DNA from: an uncultured Actinomycetes bacterium
GTDB lineage: Bacteria > Actinomycetota > Acidimicrobiia > IMCC26256 > PALSA-610
NCBI GenBank assembly: GCA_963814995.1
Contig: CAWFFF010000012.1
Location: 140 to 64,139 of the forward strand
Reading direction: 5' to 3'
DNA: 64,000 bases
A model generated the notes under the pieces. It was given only the letters and a program-made list of their open reading frames with translations. It made no database searches and had not been told where the DNA came from. Shown piece after piece: positions 25,278 to 50,388 of this stretch. Within the stretch, counting starts at the first letter, position 1, and each line of letters starts with the position of its first letter. The translations under genes were made by a program, and so were the position numbers.

Positions 25278-26180
25278 TCAGGTGCGGTTCGGCCACAGGT
25301 CGACCGGCCCGCCGACATAGCCCCCCGCCGCCCGCACCGCCTCGCCCCACGGCGCCAGCAATGTGACGACCTCGTCCACCTCGTCGCCGAGCGCGTCGAT
25401 CGCGGGCGTCATCGCCCGGTCGGTCGCCCGCTCCATTGCTTCGCGCGCGTCGAGGCCCGCGGGGGTCAGCGTCTCCGCGGCGTCGAGCCAGCCGCGGCCG
25501 CGCAGCCGGACCGCGGCGCCGTCGAGCTCCGCGTCGTCCCACCCCCGCGTGCGGATGTAGGTGCGCAGCGGCAGGCCCATGTAGGCCTCGGTGAGCAACC
25601 CGATCTCGACCGCGTCGACGCCCGCCGACGACCACGTGCATACGTGGGCGTCGCCGCGGTACTCCCGCAACATGTCGCCGAGGTGGAACAGACGCGTCCA
25701 GGCGTCGGCCGGATCGTCCCACTGCGCGCGCAACCCCGCGAACAGCGGCCGTCCCGGCACGGCCAGCGGGTCCACGGCGCGCTCGAGGAGCGCGGCTGCG
25801 CGCGTGACGTCGGCGTCGCCCGCGCCGCAGATCCGGACGAGCTGCGCGACCGCGCCGGCGCGACGCGCCGCGAAGATCGTGCGCGCGTCGGTGATGCTCC
25901 AGCCGAAGCGGACTCCTGCGGCGACGGCACCGGGCTTGAAGACGCCGAAGGCCGACGCGACCACCTCGGGCTCCACCTGACCGAGCAGCGAACCGCGGCT
26001 CGTGAAGTACGCGGCGCCGTCGGGCGCGGCGACGCCGTTGCCGAACGAACCGGGACTCGGCGCGAACCCGAGGTCTTCGTACGCGGCGTGACACTCGCGC
26101 GCGAAGAACACCTGGCCGATGACCGGCTCGAGGGTCGCGGCCAGGGTGCGGGCGCGGCGGCGGAAGGTTGCGTCGTCCAT
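25278..26180 (-). CDS. Conserved actinobacterial hypothetical protein (SCO6745-like; family assignment tentative)
   Basis: A coherent ORF runs from MDDATFRRRARTLAATLEPVIGQVFFARECHAAYEDLGF... to the stop at 25278. The upstream 79 codons of the track ORF are low-complexity. Confidence 0.5.
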   Translation of the reverse strand: MDDATFRRRARTLAATLEPVIGQVFFARECHAAYEDLGFAPSPGSFGNGVAAPDGAAYFTSRGSLLGQVEPEVVASAFGVFKPGAVAAGVRFGWSITDARTIFAARRAGAVAQLVRICGAGDADVTRAAALLERAVDPLAVPGRPLFAGLRAQWDDPADAWTRLFHLGDMLREYRGDAHVCTWSSAGVDAVEIGLLTEAYMGLPLRTYIRTRGWDDAELDGAAVRLRGRGWLDAAETLTPAGLDAREAMERATDRAMTPAIDALGDEVDEVVTLLAPWGEAVRAAGGYVGGPVDLWPNRT

Positions 26181-26280
26181 CGGCGGAGTCTCGCCGCCGC
26201 TCCCGCGAATGCGCCAGAGCGGCCGGACGCGCGCACCGCTCGATCGCCCGCCGCCGGCGCGGTGCGTACGCTGCGCAGCC

Positions 26281-27706
26281 GTGACCGACGACCTCGCCCT
26301 CCTCGACGCCACCGCCCAAGCCGAGCTCGTCGCGAACGGGTCGGTGTCGCACCTCGAGCTCGTCGAGGCCGCGATCGAGCGCATCGAGCGCATCGACGGC
26401 CGGCTCAACGCGGTCATCCACCGGCGCTACGAGCGGGCCCGGGCCGAGGCACCGACGGCGACCGGACCGTTCGCGGGAGTGCCCTTCCTCGTGAAGGACG
26501 CCGTGTGCCACACCGCGGGCGACCCGTACCACGCGGGCATGCGCGCGCTGAAGGACGCGAGGTGGGTCGAGCCGAACGACACGTGGCTCGCAACGCGGTT
26601 TCGCGCCGCGGGATTCGTGTTCGTCGGCAAGACGAACACACCCGAGCTCGCGACGAGCATCACCACCGAGCCCCTCGCGTACGGACCGACCCGCAACCCG
26701 TGGGACCTCACGCGCAGCACCGGCGGCTCGAGCGGTGGTTCCGCGGCCGCGGTCTCGGCCGGGCTCGTACCGGTCGCGCACGGCAACGACATGGGCGGAT
26801 CGATCCGTTTCCCGGCGAGCGCGTGCGGCATCGTCGGCCTGAAACCGACCCGCGCCCGCACCACGCTCGGGCCCGACTTCGGCGAGTACTGGGGGCCGCT
26901 CACGCACGAGTTCGTGCTCACGCGCTCCGTGCGCGACACCGCGGCGGTGCTCGACGCGGTGGCCGGGGCCGGACCCGGCGACCCCTACACCGCCCCGCCG
27001 CCGGCCCGGCCCTATCTCGAGGAGATCGCCGGCGATCTCGCCGGCCGACTCCGAATCGGCTTCCGTACCGAGACCCCCGACGGCGAGGCCTCGCATCCCG
27101 ACGCGGTGACCGCCGTCGAATCGACCGCGAGGCTCCTGTCGACGATCGGTCACGACGTCGGCGCCACCGCGATCCCCGAGCTCGACAACTCGTACAACCA
27201 GGCGTTCATCACGGTGCTGTCGACGGCGGTCGCGCGCGACGTCGCGCGCTGGAGCGCCGCGCCTCGGTCACGACATCACCGACGCGCTCGAGCCGATGAA
27301 CGCGTTCTTCGCGTCGATGGGCGGCCAGGTCCGCGGCGTCGACTACGCCGGCGCGATCGAAGACCTGCAGTCGTGGACGCGCCGGGTCGCGTCCTGGTGG
27401 AACGACCACGACGTCCTCGTGGTGCCGACGAGTCCGGAGCCGCCGTTCCGGCTCGGCGAGCTCGCGCCGACGAACCGCGACCCGGCCGTCGGCGCGCGCA
27501 TGGGGCGGCTCGTGACGTTCTGCTCGCCCTTCGACGTCACCGGCCAGCCGGCCATCTCACTGCCGTTGCACTGGAACGACGACGGGCTGCCGATCGGGGT
27601 GCAGCTCGTCGCCGCGTACGGGCGCGAGGACGTGCTGCTGCGCGTCGCCGCGCAGCTCGAACAGGCACGGCCTTGGCTTGACCGCCGTCCCCCGGTACAC
27701 GCCTGA
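26281..27706 (+). CDS. Amidase (amidase-signature family), one frame change as assembled
   Basis: GVPFLVKD and the signature [14 protein letters not shown]...[16 protein letters not shown] start at 26281. An extra C near ~27263 shifts to the frame of 27296..27706, whose product continues the amidase fold (..[10 protein letters not shown].. [13 protein letters not shown]). Confidence 0.8.
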
Positions 27707-28089: not shown

Positions 28090-28749
28090 ATGCGGTTGCT
28101 CGTGGCGCGCTGCTCGGTCACGTACGAGGGCAAGCTCGGGGCCCGGCTCGGTCCGGCGCTGCGGCTCGTGCTCTGCAAGGCCGACGGATCGATATCGATT
28201 CACTCCGACGCGGGCGCGTACAAGCCGCTCAACTGGATGAACCCGCCGTGCACGATCGAGGAGTCGGCCGACGCGATCGTGGCACGCGCTCCGAAGGGCG
28301 AGACGCTCCGCATCGAGCTGCACGAGATCGTGCAGGACACGCGCTACGACCTGGGCGTCGACCCGGGACTCGAGAAGGACGGCGTCGAGGCCGAGCTCCA
28401 ACAGCTCCTCGCCGCGCGTGTCGCCGCGCTCCGCGAAGACCTTCTGCTGATCCGGCGCGAGTATCCGACCGACATCGGCCCCGTCGATCTCCTCTGCCGC
28501 GACGGCGAAGGGCGCACCATCGTCGTCGAGGTCAAGCGCATCGGTGAGATCGCAGGCGTCGACCAGCTCCTGCGGTACCAGGAGCGCCTCGACCGCGACC
28601 CCGGGCTCGCTCCCACCACGGGCATCCTCGTCGCGCAGCTCATCAAGCCCCAGGCGAAGGTCTATGCGGCGAGCAAGGGCGTGGCGTGCATCGAGATCGA
28701 CCTGAACCAACTGCGCGACGGCGTCGACCCCGACCTCACGCTGTTCTAG
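28090..28749 (+). CDS. nucS: Endonuclease NucS (EndoMS, mismatch-specific)
   Basis: Full-length match to the NucS pattern: MRLLVARCSVTYEGKLGA..., YKPLNWM, GPVDLLCRD..G..IVVEVKR, DQLLRY. Confidence 0.9.
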   Translation: MRLLVARCSVTYEGKLGARLGPALRLVLCKADGSISIHSDAGAYKPLNWMNPPCTIEESADAIVARAPKGETLRIELHEIVQDTRYDLGVDPGLEKDGVEAELQQLLAARVAALREDLLLIRREYPTDIGPVDLLCRDGEGRTIVVEVKRIGEIAGVDQLLRYQERLDRDPGLAPTTGILVAQLIKPQAKVYAASKGVACIEIDLNQLRDGVDPDLTLF

Positions 28750-28770
28750 CCACACGAGGCCGTGTGCGCG

Positions 28771-30772
28771 TCACTCGTGCGCGGCGTCGTCGAACTTCGT
28801 GTAGTCGCCGTTGAACACGAGCTTGGTCGCCCCGACCGGCCCGTTGCGGTGCTTGGCGATGATGATCTCGGCCAGACCGCGCTGGTCGGACTCCGGGTTG
28901 TAGTACTCGTCGCGGTAGATGAAGAGCACGACGTCGGCGTCCTGCTCGATGCTGTTGTGCACCACGATGTCGCCGGCAACGAAGTTGTGCGTCCGCGCGA
29001 CCGTCGCGTCGAACACAGGCTCCGTACCCCGGGGCTCGATCGCCACGACCTCGTCCCAGAGCACGTCGCTCGCACCGAGGTCGGCGAGGAACTGATCGGG
29101 AAGCGCTTCGGCGATCCGACCCATCAGCGAACGCGACACGCCTTCTTCGTACACGCGGTGGCGTCCGCCCGCCGATCCGCTCAGCCGCTCCACCAGATCG
29201 TGGGCGCGCAGGGAGCCGTTCACGAGCAGACCCTTGCGCTCGATGTAGTCCCAGACCTCGCGCGGGAACGGAGTCGCGGCGCGGATCGACCTCGGGGCCG
29301 GTGACGCGCGACGACGCGACGTGCGTGCCGACCGTGATGTCGGTGAGATGCACCCACCCGTCGAGGGTGAGGAACGGATGGTTCGCGCTCGCGGTGACGC
29401 GCCGGCCCGACGCAAGCTGCAACTCGAACACCGGCTTCGAACCGCTGCAGAAGACGTGGGCCATCACGCCCGGGACCAGCCGGAGATGCTCGTCGAGCGT
29501 GAGCACCTCGACGTCGCGTGCGCCGGCCTCGTACAGCGCGCCCATCGTGGCGGTCGTGCCGTCGGCGAGCGCGATCTCGGTGCCGGCGACGAGGCAGCCG
29601 GACTCGCGCAGGTCGGCGAGCATCGGCCGCTTGTCGGAGCGGTACTCGAGCTGACGGTTGAGCTGCGAGAGGGTGATCACGGGCGCTTCGAGCTCGCGCG
29701 CCAGGATCTTCAACCCGCGCGAGAGCTCGGAGACCTCGACCTGGCGGTTCTCCGACCGCCCGGGCGTCGACATCAGCTGGAGGTAGTCGACGACGATCAG
29801 CCCGAGGTCGCCGTAGCGGGCCTTGACCCGCCGGGCCTTGGCTCGCATCTCCATGACGGTGCAGTGTGGGTTGTCGTCGATGAAGAACGGGGCTTCGGCG
29901 AGCCGGCCGATCGCCTGGTTGACGCGCGGCCACTCGTGCTCCGAGAGCTTGCCGGTCTGCAGCTTGCGCGACTGCACGCGCGCTTCGGCGGCGAGGAGCC
30001 GCTTGGTGAGCTCGAGGTAACCCATCTCCATCGAGAAGAAGAGCACCGGCTTGCGGCCGACGAGCGCGACGTGTTGCGCCATTCCGAGCGCCAGCGACGT
30101 CTTCCCCTGTCCGGGACGCGCCGCGATGATCGTGAGGGTCGACGGCTGCATGCCGAGCAACAGGGCGTCGAGATCGCGAAAGCCCGTGGCGGTGCCGACG
30201 ATGTCGCCTTGATGGCCGTACAGCGCCTCGAGCTGGTTCATCGTCTCTTCGAGCGCGGGGTACAGCGGCATGAGCGTGTCGGCGACGCGCCGTTCGGCGA
30301 CCTCGAAGATCGCGGCCTCGGCGCGGTCGAGCGTGTCGTCGACCGCGTCCTCCGCCGCGTACGCCATCTCCTGGATGCCGCCCGCGGTCTCGATGAGCCG
30401 CCGTAGCATCGAGAGCTCGCCGACGATCTGGGCGTAGTGCGACGCGTTCGCCGACGCCGGCGTGGAGGCCTGGATCCGCACGAGCGTCTGGCGGCCGCCG
30501 AGTTGTTCGAGCAGCGACGCGCGCCGCAGCTCCTCGGCCACGGTCACCGGATCGACGGGCTCGCCCCGGCTGTGGAGTCCGTACGCGGCCTCGAAGATCG
30601 AGCCGTGCGCGGGCTTGTAGAAGTCGCTCGCCTCGAGGCGAGCCTCCACCGCGGCGGTGATCGCCTCACGGCTCAACATCATGGCCCCGAGCAGCGACTC
30701 CTCCGCTTCGAGGTTGTGCGGCGGGACGCGCGCACCGTTCGCCCGTCGTCGCGCATCCTCGATCGAGACCAT
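28771..30772 (-). CDS. dnaB: Replicative DNA helicase DnaB, interrupted by a mini-intein (plus one frame change inside the intein)
   Basis: N-extein with Walker A ARPGQGKTS, VVDYLQLM and ..LADLRESG. The C-extein SIEQDADVVLFIYRDEYY...AKHRNGP is in the frame of 28771..29415. The frame break lies at a GGGG run near ~29295. Confidence 0.9.
28954..29596 (-). mobile_element. DnaB mini-intein (about 214 aa) at the RESG|C ... HN|SIEQDAD site
   Basis: It starts CLVAGTEIALADG and ends NFVAGDIVVHN followed by S. ASANHPFLTLDGWVHL and SDVLWDEVVAIEPRGTEPVFDATV parallel the Ssp DnaB intein blocks. The 643-nt length (not a multiple of 3) confirms the internal indel. Confidence 0.85.
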
Positions 30773-30878
30773 CTGCCGTTACCGCCCTTCCCCGGAAGTG
30801 GGGACCATTGCATGCCGCAGTTGTGGGGTGGAAGGGGACAAGGCTGTGAATTGCGGGCCCCTCGCGGGGGATATCTCT

Positions 30879-32959: not shown

Positions 32960-33161
32960 GCGCCGGTACCTCCTTCGGGCCGCCCGGTCAGGCCGCAGCG
33001 GGCCCCTTTGCCCGCCGGATGACCGGCGTCGCGGGGGCAGGATTCGGTTGTTGGAGAACCGGTGGAAGTTAGCAGATCACCTCGACTCGACCTATCGGCG
33101 CCGAACTTACAAGAGGGGTGAGACAGTTGCATGCGGCGACTGCACGCGGCGGCCGGGGCGC

Positions 33162-33681: not shown

Positions 33682-34654
33682 CTACTGCGCGAGCTCGGGT
33701 TCGGCGGCGGCGCCGTAGAGACCGAGGGCGTCGGCCATCCGGTCGGTCATGTGGTACGTCTCGGTGCTCGCCGGGTAGGTGCCGCCCCGCACGTCTGCGC
33801 AGAAACGCTCGATCGACTCGGTCGCGACCATCTCCAGCGCGGCGTACGTGCGGACGAACTTGGGCGCGCGGTGCTCGGGACCCGCGAACCCGAGCAGGTC
33901 GTGCCACACGAGTACCTGCCCGTCGCAGTGACGTCCGGCGCCGATGCCGATCGTCGGGATCGCGACCGACTCCGTGATGACGCGCGCGACCGCGTCGGGA
34001 ACGCACTCGAGCACGATCGCGAAGCAACCGGCGTCGGCGAGTGCGCACGCGTCGTCGGCGAGCGCCTTGGCCGCGTCGAGCTCCTTACCCTGCACCTTGA
34101 AGCCGCCCAGCGCGTGGATCGACTGCGGGGTCAGGCCGATGTGGCCCATGACGGGGATCTCGGCGTCGAGGATCGCGTGCACCGCGTCGAGCCGCTTCCG
34201 CCCGCCCTCGAGCTTCACCGCACCCGCGCCCGCGCGGTACGAGACGCGCCGCGTTGTGCACGGTCTCGGCCGGGTTGACGTGGTAGCTGAGCCACGGGAG
34301 GTCGGCCACCACCAGAGCGCGCGGCTTCGTGCGCGCGACCGCGCCGACGTGGTGCGCCATGTCGTCGGTCGTGACCTGCAACGTGTCGTCGTAGCCCAAC
34401 ACGACCATCGCGACGGAGTCGCCGACGAGGATCAGGTCGGCGCCCGCGGCATCGACGGTTCGGGCCGACGGCGCGTCGTAGGCCGTGACCATGACGAGCG
34501 GCGCCTCACCGCCCTTGCGGGCGACGACGGCCGGGGCGGTCATCCGCCTCGGCGCGCTCGGGGTCGGGTTCGAAGTCGTGTCGGGCCCCGGCCCGGACAC
34601 GGGGATCGGCGCCGAATCCGGCGTCGCGTTTGCGGGCATCTCCGCCACCTCCAT
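33682..34654 (-). CDS. panB: 3-methyl-2-oxobutanoate hydroxymethyltransferase (one frame change as assembled)
   Basis: ..LVMVTAYDAPSAR..ILVGDS... is in the frame of 34085..34654. ..VKLEGG...PVMGHIGLTPQS...GGFKVQG... is in the frame of 33682..34218. There is an extra base near ~34237. Alternative starts are ATG 34639 (GGAGG 8 nt upstream) or 34543. Confidence 0.85.
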
Positions 34655-34738
34655 CCGTCCAGGGCACGTTCGGCTCCCGGCGGTCCCTGAAGCGTACCGG
34701 CGCGCAACCGCGTGTCACCAGCGGGCCACCGGCCACCC

Positions 34739-35074
34739 GTGCGGACGAGCCGAGCCCCCCGGCGAGCGCGAGGGAGCCATGCGAACGTGCGGACGAGCCG
34801 AGCCCCCCGGCGAGCGCGAGGGAGCCATGCGAACGTGCGGACGAGCCGAGCCCCCCGGCGAGCGCGAGGGAGCCATGCGAACGTGCGGACGAGCCGAGCC
34901 CCCAGGCGAGCGCGAGGGAGCCATGCGAACGTGCGGACGAGCCGAGCCCCCAGGCGAGCGCGAGGGAGCCATGCGAACGTGCGGACGAGCCGAGCCCCCA
35001 GGCGAGCGCGAGGGAGCCATGCGAACGTGCGGACGAGCCGAGCCCCCAGGCGAGCGCGAGGGAGCCATGCGAAC
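34739..35074. repeat. Tandem repeat, 7 x 48 bp, head-to-tail (units 1-3 differ from 4-7 by one C/A)
   Basis: The unit GTGCGGACGAGCCGAGCCCCC[C/A]GGCGAGCGCGAGGGAGCCATGCGAAC was read directly. Units abut with no spacers. Each unit contains GAGGGAG followed by ATG. Confidence 0.95.
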
Positions 35075-35270
35075 GAGGGACAATGCGTTCGTGCCGACGC
35101 GTACCTGCGAGAACTGCGGCGTCCCCGACGACGAGCTGGTGCCCGTCCGCCGGATCTACGTGGTGCCGCCGTCGTGGGACTCGCCCGGCTCCGAGACCGT
35201 CATGGCCGAACCGGAGCAATGGTGCGTGTCGTGTTGCTCGCAGTATCCGTGCGAGCTCGTCGACGACTGA
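35067..35270 (+). CDS. Small Cys-rich (CxxC...CxxCC) hypothetical protein; start ambiguous
   Basis: ..TCENCGVPDDELVPVRRIYVVPP...EQWCVSCCSQYPCELVDD looks like a zinc ribbon. Candidate starts are the ATG of the last repeat unit (35067) or GTG 35091 (GAGGGA 10 nt upstream). Confidence 0.4.
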   Translation: MRTRDNAFVPTRTCENCGVPDDELVPVRRIYVVPPSWDSPGSETVMAEPEQWCVSCCSQYPCELVDD

Positions 35271-35306
35271 ACAAGCGGGCGGCCGGGAGCTCGCCGAGAC
35301 GACGGA

Positions 35307-35672
35307 TCAGCTCGCGTGCAGGCGGCCGTGCAGCGACTGGCGGCGGAGGTGGTTCCACCGGCACTCGACGCACACCTCGACGTCGTAACAGGCGAATTCG
35401 TCGCACGACGCACCCAGCTTGCGGAGCTCGGCCGCGTTGCTGATGGCCCGGCCGTTGGCCTGCTTGAGCTTCTCGCCGTAGACGTACGAGACGAGACGGA
35501 GGTTGGTCGCGCCGCACACCGGGCACTCGTCGTCGATGTCGCTGCCGATGAACTGCGCGGCGCGCAGGAGCTCGGGATGGGCGTCACACACGTCGAGGCG
35601 GGTGAGCGTTCCCCGACGGAAATCGCGCAGAACCGCCCTGCGGGCCAGCGCGTAGTCGGTGACGCTCTGCAT
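35307..35672 (-). CDS. DUF5318 family protein
   Basis: [21 protein letters not shown]...[11 protein letters not shown]...CPVCG...CVECRWNHL. This conserved actinobacterial protein is typically found next to PadR-ino1. Confidence 0.75.
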
Positions 35673-35845
35673 CGGCCGAAAGTGTAGGTGCGCGCCGAAC
35701 GGGTTTGAACCGCGCGTCTCGCCTGCAGGTCGCGCGTGCGCGCCGGCACACGAACACCCCACCAGCCCCACGAGTCGACCTCGAACGCCACCGGAACCCG
35801 CCTTGGTGGCCGATTTCGGACAATACTCTCGGACAATGCTTGCGC

Positions 35846-49093: not shown

Positions 49094-49408
49094 ATGTACG
49101 CTTCCGAGCCGGGAACGAGCCAAGGAACTCGAGTGAGCGACTGGACCACCGAAGCCACCGATGTGATCGAACGCACCGTCGCGATGGTGCGCGACCGGAC
49201 CGTGGAACCGGCCGAAGCGATCTCCCGGGGCATCGTCTACGGACTCCTCGCCGCTCTGGTCGCAGTCCCGGCACTCGTATTGTTGACGATTGGTGCCTTT
49301 CGCGGTCTCGTGCTGCTGGAGCAGGGCTACACCTGGGCGGCCTGGTGCACGCTCGGCGGAATCTTCCTGATCGCCGGCGGGTTCTGCTGGAGCAAGCGCA
49401 AACCCTGA
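49094..49408 (+). CDS. Small membrane protein, hypothetical
   Basis: 104 aa with two hydrophobic helices (IVYGLLAALVAVPALVLLTIGAF; AAWCTLGGIFLIAGGFCW). Confidence 0.5.
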   Translation: MYASEPGTSQGTRVSDWTTEATDVIERTVAMVRDRTVEPAEAISRGIVYGLLAALVAVPALVLLTIGAFRGLVLLEQGYTWAAWCTLGGIFLIAGGFCWSKRKP

Positions 49409-49442
49409 TCGAAACCCCTGGTCACGAACGGACATACGAGCC

Positions 49443-50388
49443 ATGAACGCGGTGGACGTCATCATCATCGGGTCGGGCCCTGCGGGACTCACGGCCGCCA
49501 TCTACACCGCCCGAGCCAACCTGAAGCCCCTGGTCATCGAGGGTCTGCAGGCCGGCGGGCAGCTCATGTTGACGACCGACGTCGAGAACTACCCGGGCTT
49601 CCCCGACGGGATCGTGGGCCCCGACCTCATGGCGAAGTTCCGGGAGCAGGCCGAGCGCTTCGGCGCCGAGTTCCTGACCGCCGACGTCGACGAGGTCGAC
49701 CTCGCTGCGACCCCCAAGCGGGTGCGCGTCGGGGGTCACGACGAATACGCCCGCGCGATCATCATCTCGACGGGCGCGGCAGGCGCGCATGCTCGGCCTG
49801 GCGAACGAGCAGACGCTGCTGGGCCACGGTGTCTCCACCTGTGCCACCTGTGACGGGTTCTTCTTCCGTGGGCACGAGATCGCGGTCATCGGCGGCGGCG
49901 ACTCTGCGCTGGAGGAGGCGAACTTCCTCACGCGGTTCGCCGACAAGGTGACCCTCGTGCACCGGCGCAAGGAGCTGCGCGCCTCGAAGATCATGCAGGA
50001 CCGCGCCTTCGCGAACCCCAAGATCGAGTTCCTCTGGAACGCGGTCGTCACCGACGTGAAGGGCGACGGTCGCGTCGAGGCGCTCGAGGTACGCGACACC
50101 GAGACCGGCTCCACCACCGACCTCCCCGTGACCGGTGTGTTCGTGGCGATCGGCCACGATCCGAACACGTTGCTGTTCACCGGCCAGATCGAGTTGGATC
50201 CCGGTGGGTACATCGTCACGCGGCCCGGTTCGACCGCAACCTCGATCCCCGGCGTGTTCGCGGCCGGCGACGTCCAGGACCACATCTACCGGCAGGCGAT
50301 CACCGCCGCCGGCTCCGGCTGTATGGCGGCGCTCGAGACCGAGCGCTACCTCGAGACCCTCGGCGACGTGTCCACGTCCGTCGGGTAA
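49443..50388 (+). CDS. trxB: Thioredoxin-disulfide reductase (one frame change as assembled)
   Basis: [19 protein letters not shown]; redox-active CATCDG; [10 protein letters not shown]; GVFAAGDV. An extra G near ~49777 joins frames 49443.. and 49789..50388. Confidence 0.9.

Follow-up and report, generated by a model that had tools for sequence, protein, structure and literature searches.

The DNA analysed here is a stretch of 64,000 nucleotides (the window) from contig CAWFFF010000012.1 of assembly GCA_963814995.1, which derives from an uncultured Actinomycetes bacterium assigned to the class Acidimicrobiia. The window has a G+C content of 68% and carries on its minus strand the block ssb - rpsF - DUF192 - panB, which is conserved in actinobacteria. 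Beyond panB lie a small Cys-rich open reading frame (ORF) on the plus strand, a DUF5318 gene on the minus strand, and genes for PadR and inositol-1-phosphate synthase (ino1) on the plus strand, and this synteny is conserved in every locus compared. The subject of this analysis is a tandem array of 48-bp units in the control region between panB and the small ORF. As the first-pass annotation of this DNA had proposed, panB is on the minus strand and the small ORF, with an invariant CxxC...CxxC pattern, is on the plus strand, and seven units follow each other head-to-tail between them at 34739-35074. Direct reading, Tandem Repeats Finder and a per-copy listing all bear out this arrangement.

Tandem Repeats Finder places the array at 34738-35075 with a period of 48 bp, 7.0 copies, 99% matches, 0% indels and a score of 655. 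The units are identical except at unit position 22, which is C in the three units on the panB side and A in the four units on the side of the small ORF, again as first described. The array is, in other words, a real and very homogeneous tandem repeat with one variable position in the divergent panB/small ORF control region. It extends from approximately -352 to -17 relative to the predicted start of the small ORF at 35091, its left edge is ~54 nt upstream of the predicted panB transcription start, and it lies mid-contig with clean and unique flanks. It terminates in a microhomology of 1-2 nt (C/CG). Every unit carries the Shine-Dalgarno (SD)-like sequence in GAGGGAGCC-ATG that had been noted before, and each ATG, from 34779 to 35067, is in frame with the downstream ORF, whose open frame extends over 34485..35270. 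The unit contains short direct GAGCC/CGAGC sub-repeats, while dyad symmetry and inverted arms of ≥5 nt are absent from it.

Within the window, the unit is confined to the array. A 32-mer and a 30-mer taken from the unit have 7 and 6 matches, respectively, vs 0 expected in 100 dinucleotide-preserving shuffles, and neither of them has a match outside the array even if 3 mismatches are allowed. Likewise, a blastn-short search of the unit against the masked window returned chance matches of ≤13 nt only. The exact 39-mer that spans the junction between two units has no match in 185,579 GTDB species-representative genomes, and two patterns searched for in viral contigs gave no matches. The array itself is an ordinary kind of object, i.e. 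a bacterial minisatellite.

The spacer between panB and the small ORF has a length of 70-150 bp in relatives vs ~450 bp in the window. The first-pass annotation had suggested a comparison of relatives for the behaviour of a variable number tandem repeat (VNTR), and such behaviour is found: seven copies of the unit are present in the window, one copy is present in each of the orthologous loci L001 and L024, and no copy is present in >50 other orthologous loci. This difference in copy number is one between species (the DNA identity to L001 is 82%) and not between strains. L001 encodes the closest homologue of the small protein (89% identity), and its DNA, 82% identical overall, is 97% identical in the panB leader. 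At the same site as the array, L001 has one copy of the unit, GTGCGGACGAGCGAGCCCCTAGGCGAAGCCGAGGGAGCCATGTAG, followed by AC and then by CACAAT-GCCTGC-GTG. In L024, a deletion of ~27 nt joins the ATG of the single copy in frame to the small ORF (ATG-TTC-GCG-TGC-GAG-AAC), so that the fused ATG is located three codons before the first Cys codon. Because L001 and L024 have one copy and the remaining loci have none, the array is, as judged from these alignments, a lineage-specific tandem amplification of a sequence that is single-copy in the nearest relatives. The single-copy relatives also bear on the variable position: the copies in L001, L024 and the unlinked locus L094 described below read TAGG, CAGG and GAGG there, respectively. 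Since all of them have ..AGG, the A variant is probably ancestral and the C variant is probably derived.

Two candidates for further arrays in public data were rejected. The spacer of 527 bp in L003 is only a scaffold gap of Ns, and P0021, a protein of 403 amino acids that falls in the 90% cluster of the orthologue and might have represented an ORF reading through a long array, is an unrelated protein.

The array is followed by what the first-pass annotation read as a partial eighth unit. The sequence in question (GAGGGACAATGCG...) is present after the last unit; however, it is better read as the native promoter and start of the small gene, because the conserved module of hexamer, spacer and GTG is intact there. 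In an alignment of 18 homologues, most proteins begin four residues ahead of the first Cys, which is equivalent to the GTG at 35091. In the DNA, an in-frame start codon (ATG, GTG or TTG) is found exactly 15 nt ahead of the first Cys codon in 47 orthologous loci, which comprise 40 distinct upstream sequences. Of these 40 sequences, 34 have a -10-type hexamer, defined by A in position 2 and T in position 6, that ends 7-8 nt ahead of this start, while all other offsets score 0-3. GAGAAT, GACAAT, TAATCT, TACGCT and TACTCT are among the forms of the hexamer in these relatives. In Actinobacteria, a -10 hexamer that replaces the SD sequence directly upstream of the initiation codon is a signature of leaderless genes (PMC4633059). 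In the window, the hexamer GACAAT at 35079-35084 lies 4 nt from the end of the array and is separated by a spacer of 6 nt from the GTG. Thus, the small ORF is predicted to be leaderless with its transcription start at 35091, and the array is predicted to lie upstream of this transcription start because the hexamer in leaderless register sits between the array and the GTG.

We also asked whether the array is likely to be translated. A codon log-likelihood model was trained on 16 genes of the window; these genes score on average +0.49 per codon in frame, with a minimum of +0.29, and -0.73 out of frame. The core of the small ORF scores +0.24 per codon, while the six frames of the array score between -0.51 and -0.02, with -0.35 for the frame of the small ORF. 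Six-frame translations of the array and of the unit have no match among 5.8 billion proteins. The first-pass annotation had rightly pointed out that the array is open in several frames; it named all three forward frames and at least one reverse frame, and in fact all six frames are open. By contrast, the idea that the units provide an N-terminal extension or alternative in-frame starts is not supported: the start indicated by the 18 homologues and ~50 loci corresponds to the GTG downstream of the array, and all six frames score negatively. In L001, moreover, the ATG of the unit is directly followed by TAG. Taken with the conserved position of the start, these scores make the array almost certainly non-coding.

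The unit is derived from a sequence that is also found elsewhere. A degenerate pattern of the 30-nt core was used to look for dispersed copies in soil metagenomes of the Joint Genome Institute and retrieved two further copies in unrelated contexts, in loci L093 and L094. The copy in L094 lies between divergent genes for an SDR protein and a DAO-type FAD oxidoreductase, the homologues of which are labelled Acidimicrobiia, and the copy in L093 adjoins a gene for an IS481-like transposase. In addition, L024 has a second, partial copy of ~33 nt between DUF192 and the rpsF leader, with 27 aligned nt at 96% identity to the window unit. This copy was considered as a clean insertion and rejected as such, since it is a patch of the same length (~33 nt) relative to the window. 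A search of the window and 103 loci with an nhmmer profile of the element gave no further copies. The first-pass annotation had regarded dispersal of the same 48-mer throughout the genome as speaking against a local array. This applies in part: we find closely related copies of ~45 nt at unrelated loci of other Acidimicrobiia, but none elsewhere in the window.

The L094 locus provides a second case of presence and absence. The element is missing at three orthologues of this locus (L095, L096/L097 and L098). The gap between a conserved ...ACTTGTGATATTT and GAGAATG-N5-RTG-GCG-CAG is 6 nt in L096, 19 nt in L095, ~24 nt in L098 and 54 nt in L094, where it consists of CCCGGC, the element and CG. 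On these comparisons, the site is a presence/absence polymorphism at a second locus. L001 and L094 have the same geometry, in which the last codon of the element is followed by 2 nt, a -10-type hexamer, 6 nt and the start codon of a leaderless-type gene, and in both loci the element lies in a divergent promoter region and is co-oriented with the leaderless-type gene; this geometry is drawn from the two cases that have an identifiable downstream promoter module. More generally, the orientation of the element is that of the downstream gene in the window, in L001, at the orthologous site of L024 and in L094.

The three intact copies (L001, L093 and L094) contain a 14-codon ORF that runs from the first GTG and reads V-RTSEP(L/P/R)GEAEGA-M. 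An SD-like GAGG precedes the final ATG by 5 nt, and a stop codon follows directly and is different in each copy (TAG, TAA and TGA); one of the differences between the copies is synonymous (GCC/GCT). The mini-ORF stops 16 nt before the downstream start, with the -10 hexamer in between. Retention of the stop in all three copies (naive p ~0.007) is suggestive of translation, and three sequences are too few to prove it. The 48-bp unit corresponds to the 45-nt element plus one inserted C (AGC-C-GAG) and 2 nt (AC), as they follow the element in L001, and in the window units CGA replaces the stop codon of the element. By this alignment, the mini-ORF in the window is broken by a +1 insertion and has lost its stop. 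The boundaries of the unit and those of the element agree within 2 nt; whole elements were multiplied. The 3' 30 nt of the unit match the second copy of L024 at 28/30 positions and the orthologous copy of L001 at 25-26/30, and the closer match to the former may reflect two subfamilies (GAGCGC and GAAGCC) or gene-conversion-like exchange, i.e. conversion, among the copies.

Table 1. Features of the panB/small ORF region of the window
Feature	Position	Strand	Basis or remark
panB (ketopantoate hydroxymethyltransferase), conserved start ATG 34639	33682..34639	-	GGAGG at 34648-34652 as SD
Conserved panB leader hairpin, directly 5' of the SD, outside the repeat	34655..34683	-	alignment of relatives
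-10-like hexamer TACGCT of the divergent panB promoter	34691..34696	-	conserved as TAC[G/T/C][C/A]T
Tandem array 7 x 48 bp, GTGCGGACGAGCCGAGCCCCC[C/A]GGCGAGCGCGAGGGAGCCATGCGAAC	34739..35074	+	direct reading, Tandem Repeats Finder, pattern counts
C-variant units 1-3 (CCCCCCGG), panB side	34739..34882	+	per-copy listing
A-variant units 4-7 (CCCCCAGG), ORF side	34883..35074	+	per-copy listing
ATG of the last unit; start of the public 67-amino-acid call P0001	35067..35069	+	in frame; precedes the conserved start by 24 nt and also precedes the -10 hexamer
Native promoter module GAGG-GACAAT-GCGTTC	35075..35090	+	conservation in relatives
Small Cys-rich ORF, 59 amino acids, VPTRTCENCG...WCVSCCSQYPCELVDD, conserved GTG start, predicted leaderless	35091..35270	+	homologues, upstream alignments
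DUF5318 gene	35307..35681	-	neighbour of the small ORF

From these observations, we propose that the array is a non-coding minisatellite (VNTR) that was built from an interspersed element resembling the interspersed repetitive units of mycobacteria (MIRUs) and amplified between the promoters of panB and the small gene, and we give this model a probability of about 0.68. In this model, an ancestor shared by the window lineage, L001 and L024 would have acquired the element, a short way upstream of the leaderless small ORF's -10 hexamer. In the window lineage, it would then have been amplified head-to-tail until there were seven copies, with replication slippage or unequal recombination as the most likely mechanism, and a single A to C point mutation would have been co-amplified to give the block of three C units by further stepwise duplication. 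The small gene would have kept its own -10 hexamer and its GTG, with the units being no part of the protein, and the SD and ATG of each unit would be a relic of the 3' end of the element, where the ATG is the last sense codon of the 14-codon mini-ORF. Both predicted core promoters are intact at the ends of the array, i.e. TACGCT with the leader hairpin on the panB side and GACAAT on the other side. As a consequence, the main physical effect of the amplification would be to move the two promoters ~290 bp further apart; the predicted transcription starts are ~407 bp apart in the window vs ~99 bp in L001. The array would most likely be near-neutral and unstable in copy number.

Several points weigh against this model or parts of it. 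The family of elements is drawn from only six sites, one of which is partial, its mobility is putative, and the neutrality of the array is an assumption. The leaderless start of the small ORF is deduced from conservation only. In L024, the SD and ATG of the element appear to serve as the start of the small gene; because the element can provide a start in this way, translation from the ATG of a unit is not impossible in the window either, if an upstream promoter reads through the array. Finally, at least four genes of the window are frameshifted and the consensus is imperfect; pending reads, the count of seven copies, and even the expansion itself, is provisional.

Among the alternatives, a regulatory function of the array fares best, and we consider it unlikely. 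In this scenario, RNA polymerase, a sigma factor or a regulator binds to each unit, or the unit serves as a portable upstream promoter element, and the seven copies tune panB and/or the small ORF with the copy number acting as a rheostat. For the array of protein-binding sites that the first-pass annotation had offered as its own alternative, the results speak neither for nor against. The array sits exactly between the back-to-back -10 hexamers of the two genes. In two independent cases, moreover, the end of the element lies exactly 2 nt before a leaderless-type -10 hexamer, and the element occupies the -35/upstream position; this shared geometry suggests function or target preference. However, the -35 positions differ between the window and L001 as a result of 4 extra nt in the window, most orthologous loci work without the element, and the equivalent of a -10 hexamer in the unit itself (AGCCAT) lacks A at position 2. 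Because it has only short direct sub-repeats and lacks inverted arms, the unit does not look like a classical operator. A scan of 34400-35400 for sigma-70 and terminator consensus sequences found nothing, where the consensus is not informative for a GC-rich actinobacterium. Rfam has no match, at E ≤ 1 or at the gathering threshold, for the array or for its single-copy instances, and the predicted RNA fold of the array is no better than that of shuffled sequences (z = -0.47 for the plus strand and +1.24 for the minus strand).

The second alternative, which we regard as improbable, is that the locus truly has one or few units and that the seven copies, or their exact number, arose by mis-assembly or polishing. 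The contig is prone to indels. Near 34230-34240, a 1-bp insertion (relative to L024) divides panB into two overlapping ORFs, and one frameshift each does the same to an amidase gene (26092-27706), an intein-containing dnaB (28736-30778) and a Pyr_redox_2/trxB-like gene (49371-50388). Because the frameshifts hit essential genes, they suggest residual indel errors in the assembly rather than pseudogenes, and a long-read assembly is a possible cause. Moreover, it is difficult to count units from short reads if they are perfectly identical, and the junction of two units was found in no other public genome searched. An artefact is, however, difficult to reconcile with a mid-contig array that has unique flanks, with two variants that are arranged in ordered blocks (three C units, then four A units) without indels between the units, and with the presence of the unit as authentic local sequence at the same site in L001 and L024. 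Also, if the frameshifts do reflect a long-read assembly, which is not established, the reads would easily span 336 bp.

The weakest alternative is a repeat that is translated in frame with the small ORF, giving an N-terminal (GRAEPPGEREGAMRTC)n or offering several initiation sites: it accounts for a period that is a multiple of three, the open frame, the GAGG-N5-ATG in the ORF frame of each unit, the public call P0001 that begins at the ATG of the last unit and the ATG of the element as the only plausible start in L024, but it is very improbable given that the extension occurs in no homologue, the conserved start lies downstream of the array with a -10 hexamer in leaderless register in between, the ORF frame scores negatively, the ATG in L001 runs straight into a stop codon and the protein databases hold no match to any of the six translations.

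The closest known counterparts of the element and its array are the MIRUs and MIRU-VNTRs of Mycobacterium (Supply et al., 1997; as described in PMC5056196 and PMC12548453). MIRUs are direct repeats of 40-100 bp without palindromes that are intergenic, scattered, oriented with the adjacent gene, contain small ORFs and vary in copy number (PMC5056196), and they are regarded as mobile elements that insert at start codons, with their ORF coupled to the downstream gene (PMC12548453). The element described here shares with them the unit size, the direct arrays of whole units, the lack of palindromes, the dispersed intergenic sites, the orientation with the gene and the mini-ORF. In addition, its copy number differs between relatives, it is apparently mobile without a transposase, and it shows presence/absence polymorphism, here at the L094 site. 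There are also differences. The host class is Acidimicrobiia and not Mycobacterium, and the likeness described here is one of features. MIRUs lie between co-oriented genes of operons, and their ORF overlaps the stop and start codons of the neighbours (-4 coupling), whereas this element is found in divergent promoter regions, with its end 2 nt ahead of a -10 hexamer and the stop of its mini-ORF 16 nt ahead of the start codon. M. tuberculosis H37Rv has 41 MIRU loci; for this element, the presence of several copies per genome is barely in evidence, with one locus in the 64-kb window and a full plus a partial copy in the 6 kb of L024. Finally, the copy-number variation of this element is seen between species and not between strains. 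By its features, the element would therefore work like a MIRU-VNTR, and we do not file it as a MIRU.

Other systems share fewer features with the array. Like VNTRs in promoter regions and contingency repeats, it is a tandem repeat between divergent promoters in which a change in copy number alters the spacing and leaves the frame unbroken. Classical contingency loci have units of 1-7 bp and switch at high frequency. The unit here is of 48 bp, in contrast, and both core promoters are intact at the ends of the array. Similar to REP, ERIC and Correia elements and to putative mobile promoters, the copies are short homologous intergenic sequences upstream of unrelated genes with presence and absence at orthologous sites. 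Palindromes or terminal inverted repeats characterise REP, ERIC and Correia elements, whereas the unit has neither, and no target-site duplication was seen. The intact copies also resemble upstream mini-ORFs and start-stop elements in that they encode V-RTSEPxGEAEGA-M directly followed by a stop; however, the mini-ORF is destroyed in the window units, there are three intact copies only, and translation is putative here.

The underlying family of elements appears to be undescribed. We tentatively speculate, while considering it rather doubtful in this complete form, that Acidimicrobiia possess a family of ~45-nt mobile mini-ORF elements (GTG-RTSEPxGEAEGA-ATG-stop) that insert with a fixed orientation into divergent promoter regions, 2 nt upstream of the -10 hexamers that belong to leaderless genes, and can be amplified as whole units into VNTR arrays, and that would represent a counterpart of the mycobacterial MIRUs adapted to leaderless promoters rather than to operon junctions. 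If so, mobile mini-ORF elements could rewire the promoter context of a gene or donate an SD-ATG start, as is seemingly the case in L024. If the fixed position beside leaderless -10 hexamers holds genome-wide, the elements would be a useful natural system for the study of target choice by tiny non-autonomous elements, and they could show in what ways insertions are tolerated by leaderless promoters or turned to use. The locus also reveals, outside Mycobacterium, a small interspersed element that behaves much like a MIRU, and it is a possible VNTR marker for this uncultured soil lineage of Acidimicrobiia. A neutral array would be an ordinary minisatellite.

Two further observations concern the surroundings of the dispersed copies. 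In L093 (~1085-1215), the transposase gene ends ~13 nt from the element copy, the element lies outside the insertion sequence, and the junction contains CTAG, which is typical of IS481 targets. In L094 (3590-3625, minus strand) and at the equivalent site of L095-L098, the region between the divergent genes for the SDR protein and the DAO-type oxidoreductase contains a conserved palindrome, AATAACGCAAGTA-nn-TACTTGTGATATT; the palindrome resembles an operator that overlaps promoters, and the element in L094 is inserted just beside it.

The small Cys-rich protein has homologues of 57-80 amino acids, all of which come from metagenomes or metagenome-assembled genomes labelled Acidimicrobiia or Actinomycetota. 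Its four Cys are invariant in the protein alignment, and neither Pfam nor NCBIfam has a model for it. At least 176 of the GTDB species representatives, most of which are labelled Acidimicrobiia, encode the 59-amino-acid CxxC...CxxCC protein next to DUF5318, PadR and ino1 genes, and the protein represents an unnamed small zinc-ribbon-like family. The public call P0001 is probably too long by eight residues, with the conserved protein of 59 amino acids starting at the GTG. Automatic calls often miss the start of this gene (in the window, L001 and L099-L103): P0019, from a relative, is truncated at 49 amino acids, and in L001 the called start is an ATG that lies two codons beyond the conserved GTG. 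For annotation, this means that public gene calls for the small ORF, in the window as well as in relatives, miss its predicted leaderless GTG start.

On the other side of the array, the panB transcription start is predicted near 34684, and the variable spacer with the array is bounded on its left by the conserved leader hairpin of panB. Across 65 distinct sequences from Acidimicrobiia, 10 of the 11 predicted pairs of this hairpin have at most one broken case, and the outermost pair (columns 4-36) is broken in 16. Compensatory changes are present: one pair is G-C in 46, C-G in 17 and U-A in two sequences and broken in none, and two other pairs switch between G-U and G-C or between C-G and U-G. 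The hairpin has no match in Rfam and is a candidate for an undescribed cis-regulatory RNA of pantothenate biosynthesis. A resemblance of the unit junction to the opposite-strand panB leader (GGGAGCC...GAACGTGC...GGACG) was considered and rejected as not significant, as 212 of 2000 shuffles score as well. Upstream of rpsF, a non-coding stretch of ~150 nt (~32960-33110, minus strand) is nearly identical in the window, L024 and L009, whereas the surrounding coding DNA is much more diverged. This stretch has no significant match in Rfam (best E = 0.66), and it is probably the promoter or leader of the rpsF operon.

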